A stretch of 64,000 nucleotides of DNA, taken from IMG/VR virus record IMGVR_UViG_3300026078_000022, positions 38,002 through 102,001 of that record; one strand, written 5' to 3'. Below are positions 37,923 through 53,428 of the stretch, piece by piece. Numbering within the stretch: the first letter of the stretch is position 1; every line of letters begins with the position of its first letter. The stretch is from a virus. The notes beneath the pieces are model-generated. The model saw nothing but the letters and a program-made list of their open reading frames with translations. It did no database searches and was not told the DNA's origin. The position numbers were made by a program, and so were the translations under genes.

Positions 37923-38745
37923 TTAGTTCAATGAAATTTACCTGTTCTCTTAGTCTACTTGTTACTCTGCCGCCATAAAATTGCTCAAACTGTTTTACTG
38001 TTAAATTGGTGGTGCCATGAAGCCATACACCCATTAATTTATTGACATACCTAGCTTCAATTATATCTCCTATAACATTCACCTTATTGCCGTAATTATT
38101 TTTTACGTCTTCAGCCCCAATATCCTCAATACATAGTCCGGAATGCTGTTGAAAAAATACAGCCGGATCATTAAAAGCGTTCTTGATTATAACTTTATGT
38201 CTTTCAATTGCTTCTTCGCCGCCATGCTGATATGAAATTGATATATCCTTTGCTTGTTCTACATGGAATACCTGCCGATTGTTTTTTCGAAAAAGGCTCA
38301 TCAGCCACGTCTTACCAACTCCGAAATTTCCGGCTAAAAATATTCCCTTATCTAAAGATGGGTTGTTTATTTTTAATTCTGGTGCTAAAGCTAAAAACTC
38401 TTTGCTTTTGCTGAAATAATGACACAATAAATTAAATACTAATTCATTATGGTCATCCAAAATAAACTTACCCTCAAATAATGTTTCTGCTCTATACAGC
38501 ATAAATGATCTAGTCTGCTCATACGTCCACCCCTTTTCAGTAAATATTTTCCTGTTTTGTTCTGCTATTCGATCGCGTTCCTTTTGCTCAAGGATTGCGG
38601 ATTTTTTTCTTTTAGCCCATATCATGGCTTCTCTTATTTCATCTTCCGTTAAATCAATATGGTTAAAACTGTCCAAAACCTCCTGAAGTGACATTTCCGG
38701 CAGGTCTAGGTTTTTCTTGATTAATTCTTGTATTTGTTGTGCCAT
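37900..38745 (-). CDS. P-loop ATPase, DnaC/IstB-like helicase loader
   Basis: GNFGVGKT, LCIEDIG, TTNL, YGGRVTSRLRE, GPDRR. Confidence 0.85.
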   Translation of the reverse strand: MAQQIQELIKKNLDLPEMSLQEVLDSFNHIDLTEDEIREAMIWAKRKKSAILEQKERDRIAEQNRKIFTEKGWTYEQTRSFMLYRAETLFEGKFILDDHNELVFNLLCHYFSKSKEFLALAPELKINNPSLDKGIFLAGNFGVGKTWLMSLFRKNNRQVFHVEQAKDISISYQHGGEEAIERHKVIIKNAFNDPAVFFQQHSGLCIEDIGAEDVKNNYGNKVNVIGDIIEARYVNKLMGVWLHGTTNLTVKQFEQFYGGRVTSRLREQVNFIELSGPDRRK

Positions 38746-39004
38746 TTGTTAATGGTTTAAGTTCAAACAATCCCTGCCACCCGTTTTCTAGTGACTGGTC
38801 AATAATCTTAATAGCGGTTTCCGGGTTATCAAGGCTTATCCTTTTTAGCTTGGTAAATGTAGCTTTTAAGCCCGTAGGCGCGTAGGCGGCTAACCTTCGC
38901 TCTTTTCTGTATTGAAGCCATTCTTGCCATTTTTCAATGAATCCATCGTGATTAAAAGGTATTTGTACTCCATTGTCTTTAAGGTTTGATTTAGGTATAG
39001 ACAT
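38663..39004 (-). CDS. Replisome organiser/initiator C-terminal domain (stand-alone)
   Basis: KWQEWLQYRKE...AIKIIDQSLENGWQGLFELK, directly upstream of the DnaC-like gene. Confidence 0.75.
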   Translation of the reverse strand: MSIPKSNLKDNGVQIPFNHDGFIEKWQEWLQYRKERRLAAYAPTGLKATFTKLKRISLDNPETAIKIIDQSLENGWQGLFELKPLTNGTTNTRINQEKPRPAGNVTSGGFGQF

Positions 39005-39008
39005 AATT

Positions 39009-39461
39009 TTAGGAATTTAAAACAGGATGATATATTAAATCATGTAGTATTTGCTCTTTAAGATTATGAGTTTTATTATATCGGATTAACTTAACGCCTA
39101 AACGTTTTAATAATTGCTCTTTACCAATATCATTATTAATTTCCTTTACACTTTCAAAATGTTGATGTCCGTCGTATTCAATAACTAAGTCAAGTAAAGG
39201 GATATAAAAATCAAATCTTTTCTTTAGATCAAAAGATACTTCACTGAAAAATCTTAAATTTTGTCCCTTTAAAATTGCCGCAATCTCTATTTCTTTTTGT
39301 GAACCTGAGAATTTACCTTTCCAAACAAAAAAAGATCTACGCATATATTCCACAGGCATCCATCGACCATAAGTTTTTTGAATATCCACATTTAATTGAT
39401 TACACTCTTTAGCCTTATCTCTATTCCTTCTTCTCTTTTCATAATTTTTACCATGTTTCAT
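39009..39461 (-). CDS. DUF559/Vsr-like endonuclease
   Basis: FDFYIP..LVIEYDGHQH...D..KE..L...GVKLIR. Confidence 0.8.
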   Translation of the reverse strand: MKHGKNYEKRRRNRDKAKECNQLNVDIQKTYGRWMPVEYMRRSFFVWKGKFSGSQKEIEIAAILKGQNLRFFSEVSFDLKKRFDFYIPLLDLVIEYDGHQHFESVKEINNDIGKEQLLKRLGVKLIRYNKTHNLKEQILHDLIYHPVLNS

Positions 39462-39477
39462 TCTTATTCTATTTTTT

Positions 39478-39775
39478 AATCAGGCAAATCCAAGAGGTTT
39501 TGTTCAGATGAGAACACTCTAAGCCCAAGCAAGGGGTTTAATCCTTGTTGGTGTTCTCAATCTTGAGATCAGGCAGTACCCTGTCGGCCCCGTCCCTAGA
39601 AGTCCTAAAGTATCACCAGTGACCTTTAGTATGAAAGCTGCTTTAAACTGTATCTGGTCAGTTGTAGGTAATCCGCGCTCTTTCTTAACACTCGCGGGAG
39701 ACGTTTATCCTACCGCCCGGCCTTCGTCTCTAATGAACAATTGCTCGGCCCGTTGATTTCCCGTAAAGCAAAAGT
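39478..39775 (-). ncRNA. Putative ~300-nt structured RNA (or ssDNA) element of unknown class
   Basis: GC-rich, ORF-free; stems 39509-17/39551-59, 39605-10/39624-29, 39664-68/39709-13, 39673-77/39693-97; crossing pair 39698-703/39725-30; strand inferred from flanking genes. Confidence 0.55.
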
Positions 39776-39788
39776 TTTATCTTATTCT

Positions 39789-40199
39789 TTACGGAGTTCC
39801 ACTTTTGTTTTTACTTAATAATTTACCAGAAAAATGAGGCTTAGATTGGATTGGTTTTCGCGTTCGTTTTTTTGGAGGATCAGAGGCATAGGAAATTGGA
39901 CGGGCGGGATCTTTGATTAGTGGTTTTTCATTTGTTATTTTTGGTTTTTTGGGGGCTGTAATCCGTTCGAAAACTCCCTTAATTACCCGATCTATTTCTT
40001 CTTGAAATGAGGCGGGATAATCTAAAACCATCCATGTACCGGTATCCTCAGTTTGTTGAATGCAGTCTAATTGTTCACGCGTACCGCCGTGTTCTTGCCA
40101 AACTTTTGATACTTCGATACCAATATATTTTCTGTGGTCAGGTTTAAATTTGAAACCTGTTGAATTTGTGAATGAGGTCAATCTTTGATAAACGGTCAT
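39789..40199 (-). CDS. Putative DNA-binding protein with Lys/Pro-rich tail
   Basis: Start taken at MTVYQ after the leader; winged-helix-like N-part, low-complexity basic C-part. Confidence 0.55.
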   Translation of the reverse strand: MTVYQRLTSFTNSTGFKFKPDHRKYIGIEVSKVWQEHGGTREQLDCIQQTEDTGTWMVLDYPASFQEEIDRVIKGVFERITAPKKPKITNEKPLIKDPARPISYASDPPKKRTRKPIQSKPHFSGKLLSKNKSGTP

Positions 40200-42055: not shown

Positions 42056-42259
42056 TTAAATTGGTAAAATTGGAGCAGTATCTTTTCCTTCTTCTTTTCG
42101 TTTTATATCTAAATCCCATACACATTCCTTACTACAGCATTGTAATATTTCTCCTTCATTTGAAATTCGTTCATACCAATTGAAAGGCTTAAACCAATTA
42201 AGACCATTATGGTATGAAGGTTCTTCTTTACCACATGAATCACATTTACTGTACATCAT
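42056..42259 (-). CDS. Small Zn-finger protein
   Basis: CDSC...CCSKEC. Confidence 0.55.
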   Translation of the reverse strand: MMYSKCDSCGKEEPSYHNGLNWFKPFNWYERISNEGEILQCCSKECVWDLDIKRKEEGKDTAPILPI

Positions 42260-42650
42260 ATAAATTAAGTTGTTTGATTGCTTCTTTATCTGAAATTAAT
42301 CTCCTTGAATAATCAACAATAGCGGCTCCTTTTAATGCTCTTTCCGCGGCTTTTGTGGTTGGCATGGATACTTGTCTTAATTGATAACAATAACCCATCC
42401 TTCCACTTTTAAGAGGCTTCTTTGTGCCGGGTTTATATACTAGCTCCATTCTTTCCAAATCAACCATTCTCTTCCAGATTTTTTGGTGATCCGTTTTAAG
42501 GAATGCCGCTATTTCTTGACTAGTACTTTCGCCTATCTGAGATATAGCATATAGTATTTGCCGGTATGTTTCTCTTAATTTGGATGGATCAAGGCTTGCA
42601 TGTGCATCTTTACTTGTCCGAGGTATGTTCTTTTTTGACATGGCTTTCAA
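42246..42650 (-). CDS. Winged-helix DNA-binding protein
   Basis: TS.DAH, TSQEIA, KRMVDLER..LV, SGR. Confidence 0.65.
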   Translation of the reverse strand: MKAMSKKNIPRTSKDAHASLDPSKLRETYRQILYAISQIGESTSQEIAAFLKTDHQKIWKRMVDLERMELVYKPGTKKPLKSGRMGYCYQLRQVSMPTTKAAERALKGAAIVDYSRRLISDKEAIKQLNLYDVQ

Positions 42651-47046: not shown

Positions 47047-47679
47047 ATGAGCAATCTACCGAAGGAAACTATTGATAAAATTAAAAATGATGCTCACAAG
47101 TATCTTGATGCTTTAGGGCGTAATCTTATAAATCGCTCGGAGCAAGTGGATTTATACAATGCTTATATCGCAGGCGTTACCGAATGGGCAGGGAAGGCGC
47201 AAGGATTGGTTGAGGCGTTGGAAGCAATTGTTGCATGGGAAGGCCCAACTTTAATAAACTGGCCTATTATAGAACGGGCGCGTGCTGCCCTCGGATGGAA
47301 GACGCGGTTAAATGATTACGAATCCGGTGCCACCGAATACGCCATAAAGCTCCATCAGGCAGAACAGGAAATCAAATATTTGCGCGGCGACATTGAGGTA
47401 AGAGATTATGATATCAAGGAATATAACAAAGAGATCAAAGAACTGAAGCAATGGAAAAAGGAAGCTACTGAATTACTGCAACCAATATTGGATTACGGCC
47501 AGTCTAAAGAATCAGGCATATTAGTAGGTGGGCATATTACCAAGATAGTTCTTGAAAGGTGTAAGCAATATCAGGCCGCCCGCGCCCTTCTCGAAAAATT
47601 CATCTCCCGCCATGAAGGTGGATTACTACCGGACAGATTCTTATACAACGAAATAAAAACGTTTTTAGATGGAAAATAA
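47047..47679 (+). CDS. Hypothetical coiled-coil protein
   Basis: Open frame; internal partial duplication. Confidence 0.6.
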   Translation: MSNLPKETIDKIKNDAHKYLDALGRNLINRSEQVDLYNAYIAGVTEWAGKAQGLVEALEAIVAWEGPTLINWPIIERARAALGWKTRLNDYESGATEYAIKLHQAEQEIKYLRGDIEVRDYDIKEYNKEIKELKQWKKEATELLQPILDYGQSKESGILVGGHITKIVLERCKQYQAARALLEKFISRHEGGLLPDRFLYNEIKTFLDGK

Positions 47680-48079: not shown

Positions 48080-48407
48080 AAAAGTACAGGTAATCAAATA
48101 TAAATGCGCGTGCGGTAAAAAATATTCAAACAAACGTCTTGCTGAACGTCACGAGGAATATTGTAAATGTTGGACTAACCCAAAGTATAAAACGTGTAAG
48201 ACTTGCAAGTTTGGAAAGCAGATTAATGATAGTAATGGAATGGAGCATGAGCCGCAATTCTTGCAAACATGGAGGCAATGGCAGTGTCAGAATCCCGATT
48301 TCAATTACGACATTCATTTCCAGCCAGCGCACAAAAACGCCCCTGATCTGTGTATTAACTGTCTCAAATGGAAATCCAAAAACCAAAAGAAGGAGGAGGC
48401 GAAATGA
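48072..48407 (+). CDS. Cys-rich Zn-finger protein
   Basis: YKCACGK...HEEYC..P..KTCKTC; start at MAEKV. Confidence 0.6.
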   Translation: MAEKVQVIKYKCACGKKYSNKRLAERHEEYCKCWTNPKYKTCKTCKFGKQINDSNGMEHEPQFLQTWRQWQCQNPDFNYDIHFQPAHKNAPDLCINCLKWKSKNQKKEEAK

Positions 48408-48637
48408 CGAGAGAATGGCAACCAATTGAAACAGCCCCAAAGGACGGAACTACTATTGAGGTAGCGCATGATGAGAAAGGGGAAGAAACTTCACTCGCAT
48501 TCTGGTCACAAAGACCGGTTTGTATGTTAGGGAACCGATGCGGAGGCTTCCCTCCAGGATGGGCAACAGCGCCCGAGCAAAATACCGATACAAATTTGCC
48601 ACTAAGCGAGGTCGTAATGTGGCGACCTGCCCCGTAA
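48404..48637 (+). CDS. DUF551-like protein
   Basis: WQPIETAPKDGT...WRPAP. Confidence 0.7.
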   Translation: MTREWQPIETAPKDGTTIEVAHDEKGEETSLAFWSQRPVCMLGNRCGGFPPGWATAPEQNTDTNLPLSEVVMWRPAP

Positions 48638-52431: not shown

Positions 52432-53039
52432 TATTTATTGTATTTTAATGAGTTACGACATATGCAGGTCTGCCTATTTTATACCGCTGTTAGCATCAGC
52501 CCTTTAGCACAGTTATTTAATCATCGAACCCATAACTAACACGTAACATAATGGAATTTATCACTTTACGAATAACAACAGTACGACCATTATCTAGTGT
52601 AAGTGTATCTCCGATATGATATTGTTGCGTTTGTTTCATAAGTCAAAGATAATCCCCTCCCCATAATATTCCAAATAAATTCCAACAAATATTTCAAATA
52701 TACCCAATACCCCTGATACATATACCATAACACATTGATCCACAATAAAACCAATGAACTAACCAGCAATACACCATTACACCACAACCCACACAATGCC
52801 CCTGTAGCGCAATAGGAAGCCAATAGCGCCCCAATCCCACACAGAAAGGCCCATTGCCCCATCAACGCAGACAATCGCAGCTAACAAACTCACACCCGGG
52901 CAAAAATCAAAAGCAATTGACAACGGTATATCACAACAATAATCAGCGCAGCAAACCATAACATAACTATATGATAATCAATTAATGGATTCCTTTTCCC
53001 GGAAATTTCAGGCTAGGCTATAGTTTTTCGATGCCCATG

Positions 53040-53276
53040 CCGCCGCGCCGGGCCTGCAAAAACCCGTAGGGTGTGCAAAGGCTACACGAACAGCAGGAAA
53101 GGAATATCCTGTGAGGACGCACGTAGGTTTAAGCGGTCGTCCTATGCATGCGAAATAGCATGCGCGATCTACGCTTGGGGGTAAATGAGAGTAAGGGTTC
53201 TGTTTTTGGGTTGATTGGCCCGGGTGGGGGTTCGGGTTGTTGGCTGGTCTGAGTTTTGGAATTGGGCGGCGCGGCG
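53040..53276. other. GC-rich multi-hairpin (cloverleaf) element inside a strand-asymmetric non-coding region
   Basis: 10-bp inverted repeat 53041-50/53267-76; CGTAG/CTACG closes four hairpins; AC-rich left arm, GT-rich right arm. Confidence 0.6.
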
Positions 53277-53428
53277 ATTTTGCTTTCTTTCTGTTTAAGG
53301 GATTCCCTTGTTGGGAAAATTACCCGGGTGAAAATATTTTTTTAATCCCCTTTGAGTTGCCGGATCTGGTGGAATAGGGGTAGGGTGTAAGAGGGTTATA
53401 GTTGGGGGTAATTGTGTAAATAGTGCAA

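Follow-up and report, generated by a model that had tools for sequence, protein, structure and literature searches.

A putative homing nuclease and a GC-rich spacer between ORF1 and a stand-alone initiator C-terminal domain in a phage replication module

Here we describe a replication module on the minus strand of a 64,000-nucleotide stretch of viral DNA, hereafter the window, which corresponds to positions 38,002 to 102,001 of the IMG/VR virus record IMGVR_UViG_3300026078_000022 and is part of a 102-kb contig representing a genome that is about 80% complete. The module consists of a first open reading frame (ORF1) encoding a small protein of 136 amino acids, an ORF-free spacer, a gene for a DUF559/Vsr-type nuclease, a gene encoding solely the C-terminal domain (C-domain) of a replication initiator, and a gene for a DnaC-like helicase loader. 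This five-part order had been proposed from the sequence alone (hereafter the sequence-only reading), and order as well as coordinates are borne out by the ORF calls. Since the profile matches described below agree with them, the gene calls of that reading can be regarded as right. As one of three options, it had further suggested that ORF1 and the C-domain ORF are the two halves of one initiator, which are rejoined across a self-splicing or bypassed insertion; the other two were an RNA-associated nuclease element and an origin based on RNA or structure in place of iteron binding. With a probability of about 0.6, the locus is instead a set of separate and complete genes in a mosaic phage replication operon, together with a nuclease gene of the free-standing homing type and a spacer that does not code for protein, and nothing in it is spliced, bypassed or rejoined.

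ORF1 and the stand-alone initiator C-domain

ORF1 (40199-39789, minus strand) starts with an ATG, as do all of its homologues, and not with a TTG that is located upstream. A HMMER scan of 1.84 billion representatives gave 45 matches to ORF1, none of which is fused to the initiator C-domain. 44 of them have a length of 89-183 amino acids and align to ORF1 across most of their own length, and the 45th is a protein of 3334 amino acids to which only the tail residues 92-127 of ORF1 could be aligned. The 25 closest homologues have a Lys/Pro-rich tail in common and nearly all of them end within a few residues of each other; because of this common tail and end point, ORF1 is not truncated. In the alignment of these 25 homologues the tail (39789-39950) contains the conserved motifs EKP, P.RPISYxSDPPKKRxRKPIQ and P.FSGKKL, and it looks like a docking peptide for some partner. 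According to an AlphaFold model with a predicted local distance difference test score (pLDDT) of 84, the protein has a folded N-terminal domain of ~85 amino acids with the order helix-helix-beta hairpin-helix, which is followed by the disordered tail. The fold has no significant match in the PDB (Foldseek E>=0.17, best VIA Z 5.6). Neither ORF1 nor the C-domain ORF matches a Pfam family at E<=1, and no PHROG match was obtained for ORF1.

The assumption that ORF1 is one half of an initiator is not supported by profile-profile comparison either, as hhalign gave a probability below 1% for ORF1 against three sets of fused initiators. A weak match between the Lys/Pro-rich tail and the initiator linker (E 0.008, with composition statistics switched off) was discarded, since it found no support by hhalign. 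ORF1 was therefore rejected as the missing N-terminal half: it forms an independent family that is never fused to the C-domain and is unrelated to the N-domains of the fused initiators. In locus L047 a protein with 66% identity to ORF1 has the same upstream neighbour and is followed after 25 nucleotides by a complete initiator of the Lin1244_N type and then by a DnaB helicase. Moreover, Logan contigs with a length of 66,754 nucleotides, probably one and the same contig, are the source of both P0001, which with 72% identity is closest to ORF1, and P0094, an initiator in which Lin1244_N and C-domain are fused. ORF1 would thus be an autonomous small protein that stands first in such operons, whichever initiator comes next.

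The 113-amino-acid ORF (39004-38663, minus strand) matches positions 208-298 of the 346-position family phrog_678 ("replication initiation O-like", 5e-10) and no other part of it, which confirms the claim that an initiator C-terminal domain alone is encoded here. It also matches phrog_18589 and phrog_6451, and tblastn led to a "replication protein O" and a "DNA replication domain protein" of cultured phages. The protein carries the motif ENGWQGLF and a GGFGQF tail, it begins 11-13 residues ahead of the module, and an alignment shows that it begins with native linker residues and not with an intein C-segment. An origin-binding domain is absent from its own chain. At least 47 further clusters of such stand-alone proteins were found (94-119 amino acids, 53-76% identity), which have the start MAKRNxKxNGVQLPF and the tail in common. 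Since this N-terminus of their own is conserved in at least 47 clusters, the stand-alone state long predates the insertion of the nuclease gene. Stand-alone copies of the C-domain also occur in unrelated phages, and the stand-alone form is commoner than the fused one, which is represented by 10 clusters of 262-295 amino acids. In these, a Lin1244_N/DUF4373-type or other N-domain is followed by a Lys/Glu-rich linker and a C-domain that is 57-67% identical to ours in nine clusters and 40% identical in the tenth, and some of them also have the GGFGQF tail. Relatives with a fused initiator, which the sequence-only reading had proposed to look for, do therefore exist, but their N-domains are unrelated to ORF1. 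Most of the aligned fused initiators (P0093-P0101) contain a Met ~12-18 residues before the C-domain (e.g., NMSAKNG..IPLPF), at or near the position of the stand-alone start, which may be a retained or an internal start.

The closest relative in IMG/VR, L002, encodes a C-domain protein that is 85% identical to the one in the window. Homology on the DNA level does not extend beyond about 38735-38975: the initial ~10 codons and the tail differ, as does the flanking DNA on either side. As the homology is confined to the core of the C-domain, this points to cassette mosaicism. The gene downstream starts at the same conserved ATG in the window and in L002. In L002 it encodes a different product of 180 amino acids (MAQQIQELI, compared to MEQRISQIL in the loader of the window). 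The C-domain tails are of three types, GGFGQF, RIQAAKDF and GKTIEFDRP, and the type may go along with the downstream partner. The 113-amino-acid protein is a stand-alone form of an initiator module that in some relatives is fused to Lin1244_N-type or other origin-binding domains, and it can be assumed to act as an adaptor which recruits the adjacent DnaC-like loader, probably via its conserved C-terminal tail.

The DUF559/Vsr-type nuclease

The third element (39461-39009, minus strand) encodes a nuclease of 150 amino acids of the DUF559/Vsr type with a predicted PD-(D/E)xK fold. Its match to the Pfam family DUF559 reaches 20.7 bits at a cut-off of 20.6, and it matches the homing-endonuclease families phrog_559 (1e-14), phrog_9084 (6e-10) and phrog_7140 (4e-7). 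The sequence-only assignment as a Vsr-like nuclease can thus be upheld; nucleases of this kind are known from phage homing elements and from fractured genes (Dassa et al., 2009, PMC2677866; Taylor et al., 2011, PMC3239194). The relatives comprise 46 clusters (132-181 amino acids, 53-76% identity), and the catalytic positions D..ExD..H..K are invariant in an alignment of 16 sequences. The profile has no sequence match in the PDB, and no close relative was found in GTDB genomes. The gene is present as a single copy in the genome, has a guanine-plus-cytosine (GC) content of 28% compared to a genome average of 36%, and is separated from the C-domain ORF by a gap of 4 nucleotides.

Among related loci the nuclease is distributed patchily. 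In L200, the C-domain of which is 65-68% identical, the same slot is occupied by a DUF559 gene with 28% identity that overlaps the start of the C-domain gene by 8 nucleotides. The record of L002 lacks the nuclease, and an RNase H gene fills the slot there; a short stretch of L002 that weakly resembles the beginning of the L200 DUF559 gene (42% over 26 amino acids, tblastn E=0.13) may be the remnant of such a gene. The nuclease was not seen in L047 or L048 either. In L048, which has an ORF1 homologue with 33% identity, an HNH-like ORF lies between ORF1 and the stand-alone C-domain gene. Two pairs of nuclease and C-domain homologues were found in which both members come from contigs of 4346 nucleotides in one case and of 1960 nucleotides in the other. 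Because the gene abuts a replication gene, is patchily distributed and has a foreign composition, it is read as a free-standing homing endonuclease. Lodged 4 nucleotides upstream of a conserved C-domain gene, it would cut nuclease-free alleles in co-infecting relatives and be copied into them during repair.

The spacer and the alternative readings

A stretch of 327 nucleotides between ORF1 and the nuclease gene (39788-39462, minus strand) is indeed free of ORFs, as had been noticed from the sequence alone, with stop codons in every frame. As TAA, TAG and TGA all occur in the frame of ORF1, the frame could not be read through even if any one of the three stop codons were recoded. The spacer has a GC content of 44% (47% in the core 39478-39775 and 49% in the best 250-nucleotide segment), compared to a mean of 35.7% for the window. 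Its folding energy does not stand out from dinucleotide shuffles, with z = -1.44 for 339 nucleotides, z = -0.78 for a 251-nucleotide core, z from +1.07 to -1.93 for seven 120-nucleotide segments and z = -1.24 for the opposite strand. Perfectly complementary 6-, 7- and 8-mers occur 11, 5 and 2 times versus shuffle means of 10.0, 2.4 and 0.7, and 4 repeated 7-mers and 1 repeated 8-mer face shuffle means of 3.0 and 0.8. Hence, the description of the spacer as a highly paired, pseudoknotted element does not hold. The crossing pair GAGACG/CGTCTC and the two copies of TCAGGCA, on which this description had been based, are present, but since the word counts match those of the shuffles they are at chance level for 300 nucleotides of such composition.

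Searches for known elements in the spacer were negative as well. With Rfam 15, cmscan at E<=10 over 4 kb and, with lax filters, over 901 nucleotides resulted in chance matches to unrelated families only, and a scan of the whole window at the gathering threshold gave nothing. Iterons and an own promoter or terminator were not detected in the spacer. Hmmscan of its open stretches and tblastn with 1017 ORFs of related loci and with the fused initiators returned noise only. No homologue or paralogue of the spacer was found in the phage GenBank set, in its own genome, in the L002 record or in any fetched locus. Exact-pattern scans gave one match in a giant-virus contig and 64 in genomes; of the latter, nine were inspected, none of which is related beyond 19-24 nucleotides, and these lie mostly in GC-rich genomes and are coding-like. 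The GC content is therewith the sole positive sign of function in the spacer of the window itself. We do not regard the spacer as a ribozyme but as a non-coding or regulatory sequence that belongs to the cassette of nuclease, C-domain and loader genes. It would be transcribed without coding for protein and would mark the mosaic joint at which this cassette meets ORF1.

Several observations weigh against the view that separate genes, a homing nuclease and a mosaic joint account for the whole locus. Only three GC peaks in the window are higher than the spacer (99.6th percentile), the peak of which this view does not explain, and GC peaks in AT-rich genomes often mark structured RNAs. L002, L200 and L048 likewise have 285-400 nucleotides without an ORF ahead of their C-domain gene. 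The spacers of L002 and L200 are 77% identical and thereby about as conserved as the flanking genes, and a stem of 7 base pairs is kept in them by five compensatory changes. The stretch of L048 (L048:4835-5231), 397 nucleotides without an ORF between the HNH-like ORF and the stand-alone C-domain gene, has a fold with z = -3.16, and none of 100 shuffles was as stable. A genome-wide search for a Lin1244_N domain, in a genome that is about 80% complete as mentioned, was negative and only profile positions 187-279 were matched. Furthermore, the homing activity is predicted from the family and the context of the nuclease, and a nuclease-free allele of this exact phage was not seen. Taken together, the conservation and the compensated stem in L002 and L200 and the fold in L048 make a functional non-coding element in this slot plausible, be it an origin, a protein-binding region or an RNA. 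The stretches of L002, L200 and L048 have no sequence in common with the spacer of the window, and for those of L002 and L048 Rfam at a lax threshold gave chance matches only.

Further features of these stretches and of the GC profile are the following. The homologous spacers L200:1772-2056 and L002:4147-4450 are located between a gene for a Fis-type helix-turn-helix (HTH) protein and the slot of the DUF559 or RNase H gene. They have >85% identity in the first ~150 nucleotides and contain conserved GC hairpins, one of which has the stop codon of the HTH gene in its loop. The three 250-nucleotide GC peaks of the window that exceed the spacer are located at 53029-53278 (57%), 48388-48637 (51%) and 47138-47387 (50%).

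The main alternative, possible but doubtful, is that the initiator consists of two pieces and that the spacer contains the origin of replication. The spacer would be bound by ORF1 or by a different small protein with affinity for DNA, the C-domain protein would recruit the loader in trans, and the origin would be opened possibly by transcription or by a nick of the neighbouring nuclease instead of by the binding of iterons. This would be in agreement with a recurrent layout, in which a small protein with a basic tail, 285-400 nucleotides without ORFs, a nuclease or RNase H gene that may be present or absent, and the C-domain gene follow each other in the window, in L048 with its ORF1 homologue, and in L002 and L200 with the Fis-type HTH protein. 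The conservation of the L002/L200 spacer and the failure of the genome search to reveal an origin-binding N-domain point in the same direction, and phages usually have their origin within or next to the gene for the initiator, as is the case for lambda O. However, the spacer lacks iterons, there is no adjacent AT-rich block for unwinding except the nuclease gene itself, and the GC skew has no extreme at the locus, its cumulative minimum being located elsewhere at about 44-45 kb. In L047 ORF1 stands directly before a complete initiator without any spacer, the fold of ORF1 has no clear DNA-binding match, and the stand-alone C-domain genes of L006 and L012 are located in a dense coding context without such a spacer. 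In a more far-reaching version, which we consider unlikely, spacer, DUF559 nuclease and stand-alone C-domain protein would together form an unconventional device for the start of replication. A non-coding element, either an origin opened by a site-specific nick or an R-loop or a structured RNA, would replace the origin-binding half, and the C-domain protein would load the helicase via the DnaC-like loader.

Quite unlikely is the assumption that the spacer represents a new structured non-coding RNA, which would either regulate the nuclease gene or the replication genes or serve the nuclease as an RNA partner. The GC peak in an AT-rich window, the significant fold of the analogous L048 stretch (z = -3.2) and the compensatory changes in the L002/L200 stem would fit such an RNA. 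On the other hand, folding and pairing of the window's spacer are at shuffle level on both strands, a match in Rfam and an own promoter or terminator were not detected, no homologue of the spacer was found in which covariation would show, and the spacers at the four loci are unrelated in sequence.

Even less credit can be given to the idea that an N-terminal origin-binding domain was once encoded here and has decayed into the spacer, i.e., that a fused initiator was broken by the insertion of the endonuclease gene and became a fractured gene, the upstream half of which degenerated. Fused Lin1244_N-C-domain relatives with 57-67% identity, including the GGFGQF tail, do exist, the nuclease gene is located exactly at the boundary between linker and C-domain, and fractured genes with Vsr-like endonucleases are documented (PMC2677866). 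However, no trace of an N-domain was found in the spacer by tblastn at word size 2 or by hmmscan of its open stretches, its 327 nucleotides compare to about 570 for an N-domain with linker, its GC content is above and not below that of the coding flanks, and the stand-alone family has its own N-terminus in at least 47 clusters.

The notion that ORF1 is joined to the 113-amino-acid ORF by removal of 39788-39005, either as a self-splicing intron or through translational bypass, is close to refuted: although Vsr-like endonucleases occur in phage group I introns (PMC3239194, PMC2677866) and a hairpin of 9 base pairs spans the stop codon of ORF1, intron models, those of groups I and II included, had no match in the 901 nucleotides at E<=10 with lax filters, no pair of exons joins into a conserved protein, no structure exceeds that of the shuffles, ORF1 and the C-domain ORF belong to complete and independent families with conserved ends and were never found fused, and the C-domain genes of L002 and L200 each have an ATG of their own and are preceded by different genes.

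Setting of the operon and comparison with known systems

Consensus scans revealed a promoter-like site (40355-40326, minus strand), which would mark the start of the operon ahead of ORF1, and between this site and ORF1 a terminator-like leader hairpin with a U-run (40247-40212, minus strand). At the other end of the module, the gene for the loader (38745-37900, minus strand, 281 amino acids) begins before the C-domain gene has ended, so that the two overlap by 83 nucleotides. Matches to phrog_3277 (6.5e-12) and phrog_50 (9e-12) over residues 133-281, where the AAA+ domain is located, corroborate its designation as DnaC-like; matches to Pfam AAA families are weak. Close relatives of ORF1, the nuclease and the loader were not found in IMG/VR, and a tRNA/tmRNA scan of the window was negative. 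In the same strand block, an upstream ORF of 134 amino acids (42246-42650, minus strand) appears winged-helix-like by eye. Its sole match is phrog_1123, a family of unknown function, and it may provide the replication module with a separate DNA-binding protein. Two rhizosphere DNA runs carry the identical sequence, one of which is possibly the source of the contig itself; in these runs neither joints nor an insert-free variant were seen, and none of the runs found to contain the sequence is an RNA run. Parts of the nuclease gene, but not the spacer, are also covered by an aquatic run, which is no evidence in either direction. Distant matches of the nuclease in Flavobacterium phages and in one metagenome-assembled genome of the Bacteroidota suggest a host from the Bacteroidota.

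The locus thus appears as a tidy case of gene mosaicism in phages, with an initiator module as a gene of its own and a Vsr-type homing endonuclease beside it. It helps to annotate the abundant "hypothetical" proteins of ~110 amino acids (MAKRNxKxNGVQLPF ... ENGWQGLF ... GGFGQF) and the ORF1-like proteins of ~130 amino acids in soil phages. If it were true that the recurrent non-coding stretch is an origin or an RNA cofactor, it would show how the origin is located in phages whose initiator is reduced to the half that recruits the loader.

The closest parallels are the fractured genes, in which free-standing genes for Vsr-like endonucleases are located directly before the downstream half of a gene or overlap with it (Dassa et al., 2009, PMC2677866), and I-Bth0305I serves as a comparison for a Vsr-like homing endonuclease (Taylor et al., 2011, PMC3239194). 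As in fractured genes, a small Vsr/DUF559 nuclease resides in a DNA-replication module and abuts the downstream gene, at a distance of 4 nucleotides in the window and with an overlap of 8 nucleotides in L200. The downstream ORF matches the C-terminal part of proteins that elsewhere are a single chain, and the nuclease is present or absent among relatives. Split-intein halves, which occur at most but not all loci of fractured genes (PMC2677866), are not found here. Moreover, ORF1 does not represent the N-terminal part of the protein to which the downstream ORF corresponds, and the stand-alone form of the C-domain gene is old and widespread instead of resulting from a fresh break. The 5' untranslated regions of the endonuclease genes of fractured genes contain short regulatory hairpins (PMC2677866), whereas a non-coding stretch of 327 nucleotides precedes the nuclease gene here. 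The locus therefore does not fit the full definition of a fractured gene: an endonuclease gene does lie between two ORFs, but these are not the N- and C-terminal halves of one enzyme and carry no intein pieces.

With the initiators of the lambda O type and the replisome organisers the module has the C-terminal domain with its ENGWQGLF core and the loader gene next to it in common. In contrast to these, the domain is a separate protein of 113 amino acids, and an origin-binding domain is present neither in the same chain nor, so far, in the genome. Intergenic seg and mob endonuclease genes of the T4 type and the nrdA gene of phage Aeh1, which is split by mobE, represent a further group of such insertions with nucleases of the GIY-YIG or HNH family. 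The fractured nrdA of Aeh1 is also cited by Dassa et al. (PMC2677866). The nuclease of the window is predicted to be of the DUF559/Vsr type and thus differs from both families. Similar to these systems, however, its gene is inserted among conserved genes, or inside one of them, with neither intron nor intein involved, and the products of the flanking genes are separate polypeptides.

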